This document shows positions 18,722 to 45,337 of a DNA stretch of 64,000 nucleotides, piece after piece (the stretch's first letter is position 1; every line of letters begins with the position of its first letter). Under the pieces are notes generated by a model. That model had not been told where the DNA came from, ran no database searches, and saw only the letters and a program-made list of their open reading frames with translations. Both the position numbers and the translations under genes were made by a program. Source of the stretch: Klebsiella phage KpLz-2_45; sequence record MN871446.1; one strand, 5' to 3'.

Positions 18722-20101
18722 TTAACTTACAGCTTTTAAGACGTTATAACTTACTGCTTCGACAGGTTTAGTGACGTCGTACGTCCGTAGCGCGTTTTCA
18801 TAGGCTACCGGGTCATGTTTGTTCAGCATGAAAAGCGCTTGAACAGATGCACCTGGTAAAGGAGAGAAAGGAAGGTTATTACTAGGTTCCGTATCAGGGA
18901 ATGCCATTTTGAAGAACTGACGAATTTCTTTATCGCCTAATACTTCTACTTCAGCCCTGACGTCTATTCTCCCGTCCCGCAGCAGCGCATCGTCAAGTTT
19001 CTCAGGGCGGTTAGTCGTCAGGAAAACGATAACATCATTCAACCGCAAGACGCCGTCTAACGCGTTGAGGAAATCTGACAAGCTACCGTTTAGGTACTCG
19101 TCCATTGCTTTATCGTCAGAACTTTGTTCTTCAACGACGAAAGGGGTATTTTTGAGTTCTTCTGGGTTTTCCGGTTTGTTTCCCTCTTTTAAGTCAATGA
19201 TAACCTTTTCTTTACTCCGCGCTTTCGTGAACGAATACGTATCAATATCCTCGATAATCACAACCCCGCCAGCTGCTCGTTGGAAAAGCGCTTGGTATTG
19301 TAATCCACCGGCGGGTTTGAGGATATGAATATCGCGCCCTAACGCGGCCGCTAATGCCGAAATCAAACTGCTCTTTCCGGTGCCTGGTAAACCGTATAAC
19401 AACACTGTGAACTTATAAGCCAGTCCTCGTGATTCGTACCAGTCTTTACTCTTATTAAAATCGAAGATAGGGTCGATTAACTCGCGCTGGACTTTATCCG
19501 TAACGACTATGGTTTTAAGGTCTCTTTTCTTCAGTCGGCACAAATAATTCCAACTGTCGGTAGTATTGACAAATGTCCGTATGTTGTCTTTACCCGTGTC
19601 TTTCAGCATAAACTCATCCATCAGGTTTAAGATAGGTTTATGGCTGCGACCGAATTTACTAATGCTAAGACGGTATTTCGAATTACTCGCAGCGTTAGCA
19701 TCAATTTCCGTGATAGAGAAAACAAACACAGTGCCCTTATGAAGAAAGAAATGTGACCCCACACCAGGCCCCACTGCGGCGGACTCTCCATTCACGTCGC
19801 CATCAATAGTTATCGTCCTACTCCAATGGAACCAGCTATTCTTAGCAAACCATTTCAGGAACGCCCCGTATTGTTCGGAGTTATAATTACTCCAGTTGGT
19901 TCCTGAGGTGTTAAAGACCAAACTGGTAACAAATTGACGTTTGACCCATTGTACTACCGCCTTGGGCGTTTTGATTAACCCCCAACCAATCGCCCCTGAT
20001 ACCGCGATAGAGCTCGCGGCGACAATCGCGTTCTGTGCCATGGGGTAGTCTTTAAAGTTAGAAAGAATATGGTCGTAAAATGACATTAGTTGTTCGAGCA
20101 T
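18722..20101 (-). CDS. BCS1-like AAA+ ATPase with N-terminal membrane anchor
   Basis: TM helix at residues ~20-45, then LLYGLPGTGKSS (Walker A), VVIIEDID (Walker B), LLNALDG, TTNRPEKLDDALLRDGR. Organisation is like the BCS1 family. Confidence 0.8.
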   Translation of the reverse strand: MLEQLMSFYDHILSNFKDYPMAQNAIVAASSIAVSGAIGWGLIKTPKAVVQWVKRQFVTSLVFNTSGTNWSNYNSEQYGAFLKWFAKNSWFHWSRTITIDGDVNGESAAVGPGVGSHFFLHKGTVFVFSITEIDANAASNSKYRLSISKFGRSHKPILNLMDEFMLKDTGKDNIRTFVNTTDSWNYLCRLKKRDLKTIVVTDKVQRELIDPIFDFNKSKDWYESRGLAYKFTVLLYGLPGTGKSSLISALAAALGRDIHILKPAGGLQYQALFQRAAGGVVIIEDIDTYSFTKARSKEKVIIDLKEGNKPENPEELKNTPFVVEEQSSDDKAMDEYLNGSLSDFLNALDGVLRLNDVIVFLTTNRPEKLDDALLRDGRIDVRAEVEVLGDKEIRQFFKMAFPDTEPSNNLPFSPLPGASVQALFMLNKHDPVAYENALRTYDVTKPVEAVSYNVLKAVS

Positions 20102-21175: not shown

Positions 21176-21649
21176 TTAACCCTCGAACCGATAAACAATG
21201 ATTTCAAGATTGGTATCCTTAAAAGCCCGCTCAATGTTTTGGCGGACCATTTCCCAATCACCACCGGCCAGCCCGCATCCGATTAAAGGAAAACCAACTT
21301 TTAACGGCTTCTCTTCCTTTTTGAGAATCGATGCCATTATCTTCATTGCCAGATACTGTGCGCTATAATGCGTTTTATATCCCGGATCTGAATGGTCGTG
21401 GTGAAATTGGCCACAAAGATTGAAACCCCACTGCTCATCCTTTTTGGCGGCCGTTAATTTCCCCAATCTGTTTTTGACAGGGCGTTTGTCAGCAAAGTAA
21501 GGCTCAGCTATCCAGGGAAAAGCTTCGAAGATCTTAACAGCGATGCCACTCTTTGCGATCCCAAAGCAGTTTACTTGGTGGGCAATGACGTCGACTTCCT
21601 TATTAAAGAAAGCCTCAATCAAATCCCCTTTAATTTCGGTATAGGTCAT
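21176..21649 (-). CDS. macro-domain protein of the TARG1/OARD1/DarG-macro type (ADP-ribose or O-acetyl-ADP-ribose hydrolase)
   Basis: 157 aa. KGDLIEAF...DVIAHQVNCFGIAKSGIAVKI and KVGFPLIGCGLAGGDWEMV...LEIIVY match the TARG1-family motifs (KGDLF, PRIGCGLDRL..W). Confidence 0.75.
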   Translation of the reverse strand: MTYTEIKGDLIEAFFNKEVDVIAHQVNCFGIAKSGIAVKIFEAFPWIAEPYFADKRPVKNRLGKLTAAKKDEQWGFNLCGQFHHDHSDPGYKTHYSAQYLAMKIMASILKKEEKPLKVGFPLIGCGLAGGDWEMVRQNIERAFKDTNLEIIVYRFEG

Positions 21650-23682: not shown

Positions 23683-23997
23683 TTATTTTTGCCTGATACG
23701 GAGTTCGAGTTTAATCGATAAATCGTCACCGTCAGTTTCATCAAATGAGAGACTCCGCCAGATTCCTATTTCTCCGCCGTACGCGTAGAAATAAATCTCC
23801 CTTTCGAAAATAACGAAGAGCTTCTCAATAATCGCTGTTTCTTCATTCGTAAAAGCAAATGACGGAGAAAGCGATTCCGAACGATGTTTAGGTAGTCCCT
23901 GTAACAATTCTACGGAATCATTAAACTCCGTCGAAGTAACACCGGAGTGACGAGCGTGACCAACTACCAGACACGTTTCTAAAACGCACGTTGTCAT
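23683..23997 (-). CDS. hypothetical protein
   Basis: 104 aa; ATGA-coupled to the ThyA-family gene. Confidence 0.45.
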   Translation of the reverse strand: MTTCVLETCLVVGHARHSGVTSTEFNDSVELLQGLPKHRSESLSPSFAFTNEETAIIEKLFVIFEREIYFYAYGGEIGIWRSLSFDETDGDDLSIKLELRIRQK

Positions 23998-25373
23998 ACC
24001 GACACCTGTAATTTAATGGCTGGGTGATGCTTGTACTCAGTGAAGACGAAATCTTCATAGGTGAGTTCAAACAACCCTTTCTTCGGCATCTCTGAGTTAT
24101 AGTAGTGCTCAGAGCGAACGTAACACTCAACCGGTTTGTAAGGCTCGCGAGTTAACTGTAACTTCGCTTCCTCTAACTGATTATTGTAGATATGGACGTT
24201 AGTCAGATTACCAACCAGCTTATTGGGCGCCATACCGAGCTCATGAGCAAATGACAGCAACATGAAGGCGTAGAAAGCCTGGTTAAAGGGCTCACCGGTC
24301 ATTGTGTCACAGCTCCGCATACTGTATTTCAAACTCAGCCACTGCGTCGGTACGTGGTTCTCCGTCAACCATTCCGCTTTACGCTCAGGGGACATTTTCG
24401 GCTGGTCACAATGTTCTTCGCTGTAGCAGTCCGACATATGGTCTTCCCAAAGATCCTGGAAGTACGGGTTAGCATTGTTCCTGCACCATTTTAACCGCTC
24501 GCTCAATGTCATCTCTTCTACGTAGAACTCTACCAGGAAATGACACGGGGTAAGGCATGGTTTACCCTCCACAATATTTTCCTGCGGCGTAACCTTAACG
24601 GTCTTAGTGCGTGGTACACCATGACTTGCTAAGAACTCTTCGCAGTTATCGGTCTTGCCATGATATTCCAGGCGCGGCCAGAAAATAGCATAAAGGTCCG
24701 GACTGTGAGTTTTTAAATGTTCCCACATCTCGTCACTACTGAGAGTAACTTCTTTCGTTTCTTCCGGCATCCAAAGCGGGTTCCACGCCGAGATCAGGAT
24801 ACGACGCGATTCCGGATTGTTCCGTAGGAGATCGAGCGCATACGCGATTTGGTCAACGCCCTTCTTCTCTAATGGATTCTCGGAGAAGTTTCGCCATGCT
24901 GACCCGTAAGGGGCATTAAGGTCACCCGCTTTGTTCACGGTGACCTGGCGAGTACGCGGTACACCTTTTTCATCTAGCCAACGATGGCCGTCTTCAACAG
25001 GCTGAATGGAGATCCCTTTGCTGTAAAACTCGATGTGAGCTTCTTTGTTGTTCTCTTCAAGCCACTTCAGGCGCTCGTAGTTTTCCAGAGGAACTTCTTT
25101 CACCACGTCAGCTTCTAAACGCCACGGGTCCCAGAACTTGACATTATTCTCCACCATGGTATCGAGGTGGAGTTCCCCGTTTAACATTGCCTTGTACTCA
25201 AACCACGCAGATTTACGCGGAACGAACTTCGTGGTGAGCAGAGGGAATTCCCCGGTCGAAAGGTCGTACTTCAGTTTCGCATCAAAAATAGAAATCGTCC
25301 CCGTTCCCGTCCTGTCTCCTCGCTGACGACCGGTTTCGATAATTTCACGTAGTAGATCGAGATACTGTTTCAC
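23994..25373 (-). CDS. thymidylate-synthase-family enzyme (dUMP-specific; thymidylate synthase or dUMP hydroxymethylase) with three inserted ~55-aa repeat modules; GTG start
   Basis: MKQYLDLLREII..DRTGTGT..F..PLLTTK, RRILISAWNP, TPCHFLVEFYV (catalytic Cys), SMRSCDTMTGEPFNQAFYAF (Asn specifying uracil). 459 aa versus ~264 for E. coli ThyA. Confidence 0.85.
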   Translation of the reverse strand: MKQYLDLLREIIETGRQRGDRTGTGTISIFDAKLKYDLSTGEFPLLTTKFVPRKSAWFEYKAMLNGELHLDTMVENNVKFWDPWRLEADVVKEVPLENYERLKWLEENNKEAHIEFYSKGISIQPVEDGHRWLDEKGVPRTRQVTVNKAGDLNAPYGSAWRNFSENPLEKKGVDQIAYALDLLRNNPESRRILISAWNPLWMPEETKEVTLSSDEMWEHLKTHSPDLYAIFWPRLEYHGKTDNCEEFLASHGVPRTKTVKVTPQENIVEGKPCLTPCHFLVEFYVEEMTLSERLKWCRNNANPYFQDLWEDHMSDCYSEEHCDQPKMSPERKAEWLTENHVPTQWLSLKYSMRSCDTMTGEPFNQAFYAFMLLSFAHELGMAPNKLVGNLTNVHIYNNQLEEAKLQLTREPYKPVECYVRSEHYYNSEMPKKGLFELTYEDFVFTEYKHHPAIKLQVSV

Positions 25374-25765
25374 TATTCTTTTTCCTCTTTAGCGATTTTA
25401 TAGTGTTTAGGGGCTTTATTCACACTTACGAATTCCCCGGTAAACCAACCTTCCGATTGCTCAATGATACGGTAATAGAACATCCGGTTATACCTCGTTC
25501 CGCTCCGGGAAGTAATCAGCCGGGTTAATTCGGCCGGAAGCGAAAACGCACCAGAGAGCACTTTATACAGGTAATCTTTCCCTACCCGAAAACGAAACTC
25601 TAACGTGATAGGGTCGTATTCGAATTCGAGCGACGAATAAGGTTCAGGCTGTAAGTCCCTGAACCCTGCGGAGAGGTAACAACTCCCGCCTGGTGCAATA
25701 CGGAGATAGACCGGTTTTAGGTTAGGAAGTTTATTGGTCTTCGGAACAAACTTTTCAAAGGCCAT
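25373..25765 (-). CDS. hypothetical protein, paralog family A (shares EFEYD..T..FRF.VG and GWxxGEF with 26953-27366)
   Basis: ATG with AGAGAG SD; track starts at a TTG at 25792. Its N-terminus MAFEKFVP parallels MPFIKVP of the paralog. Confidence 0.5.
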   Translation of the reverse strand: MAFEKFVPKTNKLPNLKPVYLRIAPGGSCYLSAGFRDLQPEPYSSLEFEYDPITLEFRFRVGKDYLYKVLSGAFSLPAELTRLITSRSGTRYNRMFYYRIIEQSEGWFTGEFVSVNKAPKHYKIAKEEKE

Positions 25766-25807
25766 TTTGTTCTCTCTTATTAATTTAATCAAATAAAATC
25801 AAGACGG

Positions 25808-25843: not shown

Positions 25844-26440
25844 TTATCTACCTGTACGCTTATTTGTCCAAGAAGACAATCGTTTCAAATTATCTCGATG
25901 AACCAATAAATCACCCCAATTTTTCTCGGGAGAGTTATCACCAGATGTAGCTCTCTGGTAGGCATACATAATTTGCTCGTAAGAAACCTCTACAGGCATC
26001 CCGCCTGTCGCTGTGCAGAATAACGGCATAACGACGTTTTTTATCGCCCGATCTGGAGAAATACGGTTGAAATATTTTATCTGGCAAAAAGCAGCCAGCG
26101 CCGCGTGATATGCAATATCTTTACTTTTTGTCGGGCTAGGGAATCGCATCGTCGGTGCATAGCACAATTGAACTGCTTCACTCAGTGAAACGGTGATAGC
26201 CTGCCCCACTGGCATTTCTTTACCCCAGAATTGTTTGATGACCGTTTGGACAGTTTCTTGGGAGCGAGGAAACTTGTCCCTTACTACTTTGTCAAAACCA
26301 CCGTCCATAATACCAAACGAGTTACCAGGTGTAATAATGCAGTCGTAATCCTTACCCGGGACCATCGTTCTGAAATCCCGTTTTTCAAAATTTGGCCAGC
26401 TATCAAAGCCAGATAAATCAATTATCTTTAGATTAAACAT
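25844..26440 (-). CDS. macro-domain protein (second, divergent)
   Basis: 198 aa; YDCIITPGNSFGIMDGGFDKVV resembles the N-A-A-N..GGGV loop. AITVSL...CYAPTM and NVVMPLFCTATGGMP resemble the macro P-loop-like GxG motif. Confidence 0.65.
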   Translation of the reverse strand: MFNLKIIDLSGFDSWPNFEKRDFRTMVPGKDYDCIITPGNSFGIMDGGFDKVVRDKFPRSQETVQTVIKQFWGKEMPVGQAITVSLSEAVQLCYAPTMRFPSPTKSKDIAYHAALAAFCQIKYFNRISPDRAIKNVVMPLFCTATGGMPVEVSYEQIMYAYQRATSGDNSPEKNWGDLLVHRDNLKRLSSWTNKRTGR

Positions 26441-26952: not shown

Positions 26953-27366
26953 CTATTTAACCCAAGTGTCAACCGGGCGAATAAAACTTTTGAATTCGCC
27001 GTACCACCACCCGTCTTCTTTTAACACGGGTTTAAAGTACGCCGATCGTCTGGCAAAACCTTTTGTGTGTTGGCCGTCTGCCAAGAGTTGTTTATTCCAG
27101 ATTGTACGTAATACTGTTGTCGGGAGAAGAAACGTACCACTCCCTGACAGCGGACGATCGAAATAAGGGCCAACCTGAAAACGAAAATGACCTGTTTCAG
27201 TATCGTATTCAAAATCAATCGTATCGTCGCCAATGTCAAATTGATTCAAAAATGTTTTCGATAAAGAACAATCGGAATCCCGAGAGAGGCGTACGTACTC
27301 TACGTGATAACTGCGTTCCCGGTGAATATCTTTCACTTGTGAATAAGGGACTTTGATAAAGGGCAT
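26953..27366 (-). CDS. hypothetical protein, paralog family A
   Basis: 137 aa; AAGGAG SD; paralogous to 25373-25765. Confidence 0.5.
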   Translation of the reverse strand: MPFIKVPYSQVKDIHRERSYHVEYVRLSRDSDCSLSKTFLNQFDIGDDTIDFEYDTETGHFRFQVGPYFDRPLSGSGTFLLPTTVLRTIWNKQLLADGQHTKGFARRSAYFKPVLKEDGWWYGEFKSFIRPVDTWVK

Positions 27367-27781: not shown

Positions 27782-28323
27782 TTTGTAAAAACCCAATAAA
27801 CGTCGTAAAATGGAATAGCATGGATTCCCGAGGGGAGGTTGTCGATCTCTTCGATATCTTTCATATCGAGTAAATTGACAACTAACCCGGTGGATAATAA
27901 TCGCTTGAGGCTATACGCCACCGCACCAAGCGGAATTTCGAAGGTAATCGCCTTTTGACATTTGAAATGACTGACCAGTTTGCGCGGATTATCCGCTAAC
28001 CGTTCGAGATAATCTTTATACGTTTCCCCGTCGTGACCACGCAGCGGCCACTGCCAGATAATTCCGTCTGCGGCTACTATCGCCTCCCCTCGAAAACGAT
28101 AAGGATTTTGATATTGCTCCCATTTGAGATACCCCGGTTGGTACATAGAGCCGTGATCAAGGATCTCCAATTCTTTCCCTGCTATGGCTTCACGAATCAT
28201 TTCTGCAAGGGCCGGTATGAGAACAGTTTCCCCTGCGGCATTTTTACCAAGAGCGACCTTCTCTCCTTCCACTAAACCGTAGACGTCAGCCGCGTAAGCG
28301 CCCCGTTCAAACTTAAATTTCAT
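27778..28323 (-). CDS. hypothetical protein, translationally coupled downstream of Tpt1
   Basis: 181 aa; ATGA overlap with Tpt1 stop; Gly-rich KVALGKNAAGETV segment. Confidence 0.5.
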   Translation of the reverse strand: MKFKFERGAYAADVYGLVEGEKVALGKNAAGETVLIPALAEMIREAIAGKELEILDHGSMYQPGYLKWEQYQNPYRFRGEAIVAADGIIWQWPLRGHDGETYKDYLERLADNPRKLVSHFKCQKAITFEIPLGAVAYSLKRLLSTGLVVNLLDMKDIEEIDNLPSGIHAIPFYDVYWVFTK

Positions 28324-28883
28324 TCTTTTTTCTCCTCTACTTTAAAACACCCAACTGGAACATGTTCGACCAGCCAAACCCCGTTCAACGCTTTGTAGAA
28401 CACGTAGCCGCGTTCCAATAGTTTCTGGGTATCAATACTCAAGACTACGAGCGACCCTTTCTTAGCGTACCGTAATCCCACTAACCGCGCGGTCTCGATG
28501 TGATCGGTTAAATGGACAAACTGGCGGGATTGCGGATTGAGTCCATTCTCAAAAATACTCTCTAAATTCCCCGATGCAGTGCCGTGGTAAAGTACCTCAG
28601 GCGGTACCTCTTCATTGAAGGCCATTTCATTTACCGGGAATGAATGCCCCTGTACAGCACGGATAGAAGAAAGATCATCGGATAACCCAAATCGTTTCTT
28701 ATCGTCCGTCTCTACAACGTGCATAATTTCCTGTAACGTAACTACCTTATTCTGTTCAGAGAATGCTGCAATCAGGTCGTCGAGTCTGACATAGCCAAGT
28801 TCATCAGGCGTTAATTTCAAAGCCTGAGGCCGATGGCGTAAAATGAAACACAGTGTTTTTGATAACTTAATTGGATCGTTCAA
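28320..28883 (-). CDS. kptA: RNA 2'-phosphotransferase Tpt1/KptA family (NAD+-dependent)
   Basis: 187 aa. KLSKTLCFILRHRPQALKL..D..GYV.LDDLI, DKKRF, IRAVQGHS, LYHGTASGNLESI, VHLT, VGLRYAKKGSLVVLSID, NGVWL align with E. coli KptA along the full length. TTG start with an AAGGG SD. Confidence 0.85.
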   Translation of the reverse strand: MNDPIKLSKTLCFILRHRPQALKLTPDELGYVRLDDLIAAFSEQNKVVTLQEIMHVVETDDKKRFGLSDDLSSIRAVQGHSFPVNEMAFNEEVPPEVLYHGTASGNLESIFENGLNPQSRQFVHLTDHIETARLVGLRYAKKGSLVVLSIDTQKLLERGYVFYKALNGVWLVEHVPVGCFKVEEKKE

Positions 28884-44749: not shown

Positions 44750-45337
44750 TTATTTAACGCCTGATGAACCAAAGCCGTTAGTTCCGCGTTCTGACGATGC
44801 GCTGAACGCGGTCACCTCTTTCAAGTCCAGGTGCCAGATCGGTACCACGATCAGTTGCGCGATACGGTCACCGGGGTTGATAGTGAACGGAACGTCAGAA
44901 CGGTTCCAGGCGGGGATACCGATGATATTTTGGTAGTCGCTGTCGATAATGCCTGTCAGGTTACCCAAAACAATTCCGTTCTTGTACCCTAACCCGGAGC
45001 GCGGATGGGTATTCAACATGAAGTTCGGGTTATTCAGGTGAATAGCAACACCGGAGGAAATCATCTTGCATTCTCCCGGATTCAGTACAACAGGTTCATC
45101 GATTGCCGCCCGCAGATCGACCGCAGCAGAACCAGGGGTCGCGTAGTCCAGTTTACCCCATTCGCTCTCATAACGCGAGTCATGGTAGATAATTTCTGCT
45201 GGGATGAACTGACGCGGATCCGGGTCCGCGATACGAAAACGCTGAACGGTATCAACGGTAGATCCCAGCTGGGAGTGGTGTACGATAGTCCCTGTTTCGG
45301 TCTTAAAATAATTCAGGATTTCTTTTGGCTCAGACAT
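44750..45337 (-). CDS. dut: dUTP diphosphatase (dUTPase) with ~45-aa N-terminal extension
   Basis: All five Dut motifs are present: ATPGSAAVDLRA, PRSGLGYKNGIVLGN, GIIDSDYQN, PGDRIAQLI, ERGTNGFGSSG. Near-collinear with E. coli Dut. Confidence 0.9.
   Translation of the reverse strand: MSEPKEILNYFKTETGTIVHHSQLGSTVDTVQRFRIADPDPRQFIPAEIIYHDSRYESEWGKLDYATPGSAAVDLRAAIDEPVVLNPGECKMISSGVAIHLNNPNFMLNTHPRSGLGYKNGIVLGNLTGIIDSDYQNIIGIPAWNRSDVPFTINPGDRIAQLIVVPIWHLDLKEVTAFSASSERGTNGFGSSGVK

Follow-up and report, generated by a model that had tools for sequence, protein, structure and literature searches.

A thymidylate synthase gene of a Klebsiella phage carries three homologous copies of a small acidic module

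Thymidylate synthase (TS) ranks among the most conserved and best-studied enzymes, and the length variation encountered in this family has been ascribed mainly to one insert of the small domain and to splicing elements. In the 64,000-nucleotide stretch of Klebsiella phage KpLz-2_45 analysed here (record MN871446.1; hereafter, the window), a thyA-type TS is encoded on the minus strand at positions 23994..25373, with a GTG start and with the stop codon included in this range, and the corresponding protein is 459 amino acids (aa) long. This gene encodes an ordinary enzyme bearing three times an undescribed, apparently exchangeable domain, and both its anatomy and its evolutionary behaviour are unusual for a TS. 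In databases, genes of this type are annotated plainly as "thymidylate synthase", and the separate mini-genes that encode the same module as "hypothetical".

With the Pfam family PF00303 (Thymidylat_synt), the protein scores 221.6 bits (E 1.3e-65; cutoff 24.3) in a match made of two stretches, and with the thyA equivalog TIGR03284, 189.6 bits (cutoff 108.35); PHROGs also assigns it to thymidylate synthase, and with the narrower PRK01827 sub-models, it stays under cutoff, the match being split by the inserts. The original prediction had held the ThyA core to be intact, which is borne out by these two scores above cutoff as well as by all the motifs it had named, the 459-aa protein exhibiting DRTGTGT, SAWNP, PCH, RSxD and PFN. 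In the alignment to E. coli ThyA (EcTS), the N-terminus matches residue for residue, and the equivalent positions are (i) R21, E59, W81, W84 and Y156 for EcTS Arg21, Glu58, Trp80, Trp83 and Tyr94, (ii) R190, R191, C277 and H278 for Arg126, Arg127, Cys146 and His147, and (iii) R353, S354, D356, N364, H394 and Y396 for Arg166, Ser167, Asp169, Asn177, His207 and Tyr209. Most catalytic and substrate columns are invariant in the alignments of 36 and 68 sequences, and so are, among homologues, both columns of the catalytic pair Cys277-His278 (EcTS Cys146-His147; codons 24540..24545, minus strand). Three codons upstream of Cys277 stands Leu274, the equivalent of EcTS Leu143, and the alignment to E. 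coli ThyA further places a C-terminal tail of TS type, PAIKLQVSV, at 23997..24023 (minus strand), the C-terminus reading HPAIKLQVSV here versus HPGIKAPVAI in EcTS.

Respective to the product, the C-terminal tail of TS seals the folate site and makes hydride transfer possible, and a TS differs from a hydroxymethylase by three switches, namely a missing tail, a replaced Trp83 and an Asp for Leu143 (Asp145 in T4dCH) in the latter, where this Asp, at the third position ahead of the catalytic Cys, and the Trp83 replacement open the active site to water (PMC6400193). At all three switches, i.e., tail, Trp84 and Leu274, the window protein is in the TS state. The characterised dUMP hydroxymethylase SPO1 gp29 (383 aa), taken as a control for the product class, reaches 58.2 bits only with TIGR03284, under the cutoff, and is devoid of the DRTGTGT loop, of EcTS Trp80 and Trp83 as well as of EcTS His147 and Phe176, all of which are kept in the window protein; it has Asp rather than Leu274 three residues before the catalytic Cys and, instead of the TS tail, an unrelated C-terminal extension of about 110 aa. 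Asn364 together with His278 points to uracil as the substrate. From its residues, the window enzyme is read as a synthase forming dTMP, of which it has all the sequence marks. A separate peculiarity of the window clade concerns the near-universal TS motif QRS-D-x-F-L-G-x-PFNIASYAL, which reads MRSCDTMTGEPFNQAFYAF (24306-24332, residues 348-356, plus residues 356-372), D-x-F-L-G-x-P-F-N-I-A-S-Y-A-L being replaced by D-T-M-T-G-E-P-F-N-Q-A-F-Y-A-F; the altered residues are equivalent to EcTS Phe171, Leu172, Leu174, Ile178 and Ser180, these being positions along or near the folate site.

The match to solved TS chains (e.g., 4fog_A) falls into residues 2-86, 149-198, 272-292 and 345-459. Final boundaries of the three inserts were drawn from the alignment to E. 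coli ThyA and verified by translation, giving segments of 54-63 aa and about 177 extra residues altogether, namely (i) I1 at site S1 (residues 87-149; 24927..25115, minus strand; E 5e-23 with the hidden Markov model (HMM) of the module), located in the small domain after Trp84, between EcTS Asp85 and Gly88, (ii) I2 at site S2 (residues 206-259; 24597..24758, minus strand; E 9e-23), located in the loop leading to the catalytic Cys277, and (iii) I3 at site S3 (residues 286-345; 24339..24518, minus strand; E 5.5e-15), which stands in for the beta-hairpin turn at EcTS Ala155-Lys158. The spans first proposed for the inserts overlap these refined ones and are shifted by some 5-10 codons.

The three inserts are homologous to each other. 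Within the single sequence, local alignment already relates I1 to I2 (z = 5.6) and I1 to I3 (z = 4.9), the score being reached by none of 2000 shuffles in either case, and the similarity between I2 and I3 is not significant by the same local alignment and 2000 shuffles. When profiles built from the homologues at each site are compared by hhalign, all pairs are related over essentially the whole module, i.e., I1-I2 with a probability of 98.9% (E 3.4e-17), I1-I3 with 98.0% (E 1.7e-13) and I2-I3 with 97.2% (E 3.7e-11), the S2 module being nearest to S1 by profile score; the earlier claim of three related modules inserted in three surface elements is upheld on these figures. The consensus of this module of about 55 residues comprises two conserved blocks, L-x3-E-R-x2-W-L-x2-N-x-P and W-L-D-x2-G-V-P-R, in this order and separated by a variable stretch. 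In DNA, the only repeats between I1, I2 and I3 are 15-nucleotide stretches that encode conserved peptides.

The whole protein was modelled by AlphaFold2 from the 68-sequence alignment, with a mean pLDDT of 91.6 and a pTM of 0.86, and the isolated module, when predicted alone, retains its fold (pLDDT 90.2). The model gives I1 as a strand (90-95), helices 98-108, 110-118 and 126-135, and a strand (141-147), I2 as a strand (206-210), helices 213-223, 225-237 and 245-250, and a strand (256-260), and I3 as helices 290-299, 303-313, 315-321 and 329-338 between core strands 278-287 and 344-352. Each insert is predicted to form a two-stranded beta stalk lifting a three-helix bundle, with four helices in I3, off the enzyme, and the models of the full protein and of the isolated module both present the inserts, with high confidence, as folded units.

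The module matches no family in Pfam and PHROG, where it only gives sub-threshold Ish1 signals on W-L-D-x2-G-V-P, and its profile matches no PDB sequence, with no TS chain found even at E<=10. Among 1.84e9 cluster representatives, the profile retrieved only 31 proteins at E<=1e-3. The module HMM finds the TS gene only, both in the six-frame translation of the 64-kb window and in the whole 304-kb genome of the relative KpXa_1, where there is no free-standing copy; a dispersed in-frame element (RPE-like) is ruled out on this count. By tblastn in a phage collection, all 29 module matches are TS genes. Among the TS homologues collected, the module is present at S3 alone in 13, at S1 and S3 in 30, including the Erwinia RAY/Ea35-70 group, and at all three sites in about 18; the 70 without any module are mostly bacterial enzymes. 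The distribution across sites is nested, with S3 the widest, then S1, and S2 the most restricted, and where the contigs are long, they span 220-325 kb, i.e., the size of jumbo phages. The objection foreseen in the original prediction, namely that homologues would universally carry these segments as a known domain, is right insofar as relatives do carry them widely, at S3, at S1 and S3 or at all three sites, but not as regards a domain already known or annotated. The literature searched on jumbo-phage comparative genomics, on the Kp24 genome and on nucleus-forming phages gave no description of the inserts, and the module is a small acidic helical domain without existing description.

Besides inserted copies, the module exists as proteins of 45-77 aa made of nothing else, which account for 5 of the 31 representative matches and to which a second search added 10. 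At several loci (L003, L004, L005/L006 and L011), such free module open reading frames (ORFs) start right at the stop codon of a TS gene encoding 457-782 aa or overlap with it, with two of them in tandem in L003 and in L004; in L013 (971-3372), downstream of a TS split by an intron, ORFs of 68, 161 and 72 aa contain four modules together. Most free copies stop directly after G-V-P-(K/R), where inserted copies have their exit point. The mean net charge of inserted copies is -3.7, and free copies are mostly at -5 to -8 (pI 4.1-5.0), with only -1 and -2 (pI about 6) for two 77-aa free forms. The module family is essentially confined to jumbo-phage TS genes plus these tiny free-standing genes.

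Some matches lie at the fringe of this distribution. A 318-aa TS from Pseudomonas (P0080; WP_074829671.1, RefSeq "MULTISPECIES") possesses an S3 module, reading FYSREMSVGQRL ... YLDEHGVPRRVLSC, and the module is as such not strictly confined to phage records. On a 246-kb contig of a Salmonella enterica assembly, an E. coli-like ThyA (P0041/P0157; L026:5001-5975), with 208 of 264 core residues identical to E. coli ThyA (about 79%), carries a single S1 module, and the genes around it are mostly without known function, a few being metabolic. Profile matches other than TS (P0127, P0138, P0134, P0139 and P0124) are unrelated repeat proteins where only half of the module is matched, one group repeating M-T-x2-(E/Q)-R-x-E-W-x3-H-x-P and another A-W-L-A-K-L-D-V-P-(T/S)-W-G; these half-module matches probably reflect resemblance at the level of motifs rather than homology.

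The exchange of modules as cassettes is independent of the TS core. The homologues P0002-P0006, 98-99% identical to the window enzyme in shared columns, are exactly without I2, and in the DNA alignment with L002, I2 corresponds to an exact 162-nucleotide indel with near-identical flanks, where the junction codons differ on both sides (GAAGAA...AAGGTTACG vs GATGAG/AAAATCTCT, the slash marking the junction). Such altered junctions are what a short-tract replacement by recombination would leave. Between other pairs, identity in the core and in the modules is uncoupled, i.e., 90% in the core and 22% in I1 for P0020/P0024, 91% and 32% for P0012/P0014, 71% in the core and 98% in I2 for P0019/P0021, and 70% in the core, 69% in I1 and 32% in I2 for P0018/P0020.

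Purifying selection nonetheless acts on the inserts, strongly so in the case of I2. The inserts are in frame in all relatives, with a ratio of non-synonymous (dN) to synonymous (dS) divergence of about 0.04-0.06 where measurable. Between the window and phage FBKp24, I2 gives dN 0.030 and dS 0.79 (dN/dS about 0.04), and the core, dN 0.142 and dS 3.46, the latter being saturated; between distant pairs, the proportion of non-synonymous differences (pN) is 0.13-0.16 in I2 versus 0.32-0.38 in the core, with saturated synonymous differences (pS). I1 and I3 change faster than the core. For some distant pairs, I2 is 74-79% identical where cores are 48-53% identical; a recent transfer of I2 between these lineages was considered and is unsupported, the synonymous sites of I2 being as saturated as those of the core, which leaves either a stronger constraint or an old transfer. 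A younger ancestry of I2 finds support only for the window/FBKp24 and P0019/P0021 pairs.

In relatives, homing elements sit at nearly the same places of the gene. True inteins, with Hint and LAGLIDADG-type domains, lie directly before the catalytic Cys in P0015, P0023, P0040 and L011:1653-4001 (LTP/CF...HN/CH, slashes marking the borders), where the TS nucleophile doubles as the +1 extein residue; this site is 16 residues after I2. The TS of L013 possesses a td-type intron at QLYQR/LGIPFN, about 10 residues after I3, which carries a GIY-YIG, NUMOD3, I-TevI-like endonuclease gene. In P0039, a 208-aa segment (residues about 85-295; phrog_2081 HNH endonucleases, E 1.2e-34) stands exactly in place of I1, read in frame by the gene caller, and could be a homing endonuclease at S1, either borne by an intron or in frame. 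Flank conversion during the repair of endonuclease cuts is a plausible engine of cassette exchange. As for the inserts themselves, an intein would be expected to have at least about 130 aa, a Cys or Ser as first residue, a terminal His-Asn, a +1 nucleophile and similarity to Hint, and this identity was rejected for segments which have only 54-63 aa and no Hint match in Pfam, I2 starting with T-K-E and ending with K-T-V; retained group I or II introns were likewise rejected, with no Rfam match in the gene at E<=1 and with constrained encoded residues.

Regarding the genome setting, the record of KpXa_1 ("Serratia phage", listed host Klebsiella pneumoniae, about 304 kb) is 98.3% identical across 10 kb around TS, and the Klebsiella phages vB_KpM_Centimanus and vB_KpM_FBKp24 (genus Maaswegvirus) share, respectively, 78-83% identity with this 10-kb region, in the aligned parts only; because of these identities, the window belongs to a jumbo myophage of Klebsiella of about 300 kb. 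The original prediction had pointed to a neighbouring dUTPase with an N-terminal extension, of which the enzyme and the extension stand but not the vicinity. A trimeric dUTPase is encoded at 44750..45337 on the minus strand (Pfam dUTPase E 7.5e-27, residues 63-193), with an N-terminal extension of about 62 aa without family match, at 19.4 kb from TS; by Pfam, there is no dUTPase in the ten ORFs nearest TS, which give weak macro-domain matches only. This gene is labelled "dCTP deaminase" in one relative, but it scores 94 bits with the dUTPase family of Pfam versus 22.5 bits, below cutoff, with the dCTP-deaminase-like one. A dihydrofolate reductase (DHFR) gene (Pfam 1.7e-29) occurs in KpXa_1 at 27 kb from TS, outside of the window; inside the window, the candidate DHFR is a chance match only (E 0.17, within a 575-aa ORF). 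The dUTPase supplies dUMP, from which TS would make dTMP with methylene-tetrahydrofolate, and the gene set looks like the ordinary route from dUTP to dUMP to dTMP with folate recycling.

Two ORFs upstream of TS, of 139 aa (25373-25792, minus strand) and 137 aa (26953-27366, minus strand), look like paralogues, with the common motifs FEYD..T..FRF.VG and GW(F/W).GEF and without Pfam match in either. The flanks of TS at 21176-21649, 25844-26440, 28320-28883 and 18722-20101 (all on the minus strand) encode two weak macro-domain proteins (Macro E 7e-4 and Macro_2 E 4e-5, both under the gathering score), a KptA/Tpt1, i.e., an RNA 2'-phosphotransferase, and a BCS1-like AAA ATPase, and in relatives, PnuC and an NMN adenylyltransferase are also found near this region. 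These surroundings suggest a neighbourhood of NAD, ADP-ribose and RNA repair.

As for the function of the module, an added interaction surface had been proposed at the outset and is still the most reasonable reading, on the indirect ground that in other jumbo phages the same module is encoded by mini-genes right after TS. Put in other terms, the module would be an acidic protein-docking surface working with TS either in cis, as inserts, or in trans, as mini-proteins, which we hold to be about as likely as not. Such a surface, dedicated to TS, would tether the enzyme to a partner differing between phage lineages and would take no part in the chemistry; the conserved catalytic apparatus can do without the inserts. 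The three copies would have arisen by serial reuse of one module, and the modules would spread via homologous recombination between co-infecting phages, probably helped by homing endonucleases targeting TS at or beside the same three sites.

Several observations weigh against a docking surface. The conserved residues of the module look structural, i.e., helix caps, the N-x-P turn, buried Trp and Leu, and the G-V-P-R exit, and there is no obvious conserved surface patch in the family. I2 is dispensable in nature, given that 405-aa alleles without it were found on a contig of about 300 kb. Furthermore, the free-standing subfamilies P0129/P0148 and P0141 are not beside TS in the available DNA, an IMG/VR search with P0129 returning one locus, without TS, and an IMG/VR search with P0152 no further free-standing copies; the free copies that are adjacent to TS correspond to only about two independent gene orders. 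The linkage of free copies to TS is real but not broadly sampled.

Among the other explanations, the modules could be functionless passenger cassettes, well-folding, tolerated in three loops and moved by endonuclease-stimulated recombination (co-conversion), whose constraint would reflect only the need to fold without harm to an essential enzyme. We regard this as unlikely, albeit a contender to be taken seriously. The exact presence or absence of I2 in genes otherwise 98-99% identical, the junction codons being altered over a short patch, is in keeping with it, as are the uncoupled histories of cassettes and core, the position of all three sites, which in relatives coincide with an intein, a td-type intron with GIY-YIG or an HNH-like segment or lie no more than about 16 codons away from one, the mostly structural nature of conserved positions, and the evolution of I1 and I3, faster than that of the core. 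It fits less well, though, with I2 type A, as a protein sequence, being more conserved than the TS core while synonymous sites are saturated, with intact separate module ORFs translationally coupled to TS, up to four per locus, which a mere passenger does not need, or with the fixation of the same module at three sites as well as within the backbone of an E. coli-like ThyA; besides, neither nuclease nor DNA-level repeat accompanies the module in this genome.

A rather more speculative view, to which we give a somewhat lower chance still, is that the modules constitute a portable cassette dedicated to TS and kept as a rapidly exchangeable surface in a conflict, the cassette moving from one TS gene to another, among the three TS sites and into separate mini-genes beside TS. 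The conflict could be (i) the escape from a host factor sensing or inhibiting phage TS, (ii) the exclusion of mixed dimers with the TS of the host or of a rival phage, or (iii) the immunity of the allele to homing endonucleases targeting TS.

The modules could also act on the enzyme itself, by gating or regulating its activity or by ensuring self-specific dimerisation as opposed to pairing with host ThyA or the TS of a competitor phage, an option which appears quite improbable. Of the insertion sites (EcTS numbering), S2 falls in the loop which sets the position of the catalytic Cys, and S3 on a hairpin of the dimer-interface sheet. As an obligate dimer, TS has active sites shared by both subunits (Arg126'/Arg127'), and in human TS, the loop equivalent to that of S2, 181-197, switches between active and inactive conformers; lineage-specific replacement of cassettes would suit a specificity device. 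S1, however, is far from the dimer interface in known TS structures, free-standing copies are left unexplained, and alleles without I2 exist in otherwise identical enzymes.

Two further explanations are much weaker. That the modules are nucleic-acid binders of HeH, SAP or Ish1 type, tethering TS to DNA or to its own mRNA, is very improbable, since their acidity argues against nucleic-acid binding for most copies, the net charge being negative in nearly all of them; the recurrent sub-threshold Pfam Ish1 matches on W-L-D-x2-G-V-P (E 0.016-0.13) all stay under the gathering score, with 16 bits at best (E 0.016) against a cutoff of 26.6, and only cover one helix and the G-V-P turn, the model then having a strand and not a second helix, and a fold search gave no support to it. 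Finally, the early proposal of a dUMP hydroxymethylase making 5-hmdUMP for a genome with modified thymidine can practically be set aside, for although the protein is within the TS fold family, has the Asn364 and His278 indicative of a uracil substrate and has the LNAPYG motif in common with SPO1 gp29, the gap between both proteins with TIGR03284 (189.6 vs 58.2 bits for a cutoff of 108.35) and the kept Trp84, Leu274 and TS-type tail speak against it, and so does the DHFR encoded by the near-identical KpXa_1, which a hydroxymethylase, not oxidising folate, does not need.

The organisation of dNTP synthesis in phages has been a question since the T4 dNTP-synthetase complex was proposed, and were the module indeed a docking surface, it would offer a handle on this organisation in large phages. 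Were it instead propagated by conflict or by endonucleases, it would represent a new mode of mobility for a protein segment, without being spliced out, and, should the conflict explanation be the right one, a domain-level mobile element in a core metabolic enzyme, distinct from introns and inteins. The natural alleles with and without I2 in otherwise near-identical phages constitute a ready-made experiment.

Compared with known systems, the module has only a short resemblance to Ish1/HeH motifs, at W-L-D-x2-G-V-P, and differs by an acidic surface where theirs is usually basic and by a strand rather than a second helix after the motif. SPO1 gp29 and T4 gp42 (dCMP hydroxymethylase) belong to the same fold family as the window enzyme, with the catalytic Cys and the Tyr94 equivalent, but the extra length of SPO1 gp29 is a C-terminal extension and that of the window protein resides in loop inserts. 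With canonical ThyA (264 aa in E. coli; 4fog_A, 1tys_A), the window enzyme shares the fold family, all catalytic and folate-site residues and the tail, residues 1-86, 150-205, 260-285 and 346-459 being colinear, and it differs by the addition of three homologous inserted domains (about 177 residues). ThyA of the L. casei type (1lca) has a helical insert of about 50 residues at the same variable position of the small domain as I1, and chains of this type do align across the I1 region in the match to solved TS chains; this insert has no detectable sequence relation to the module (module profile vs PDB, E<=10), is present as one copy at one site where the module occupies three, and, to our knowledge, is not found as a free-standing gene. 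The nearest parallel in terms of behaviour lies in the group I intron td of T4 with I-TevI and in the TS inteins, which occupy the same gene at nearly the same places, and which, like the modules, are sporadically present or absent with histories discordant with that of the host gene. Introns and inteins are, however, removed from the RNA or the protein and usually come with a nuclease, whereas the modules, without splicing motifs and without nuclease, stay in the mature enzyme.

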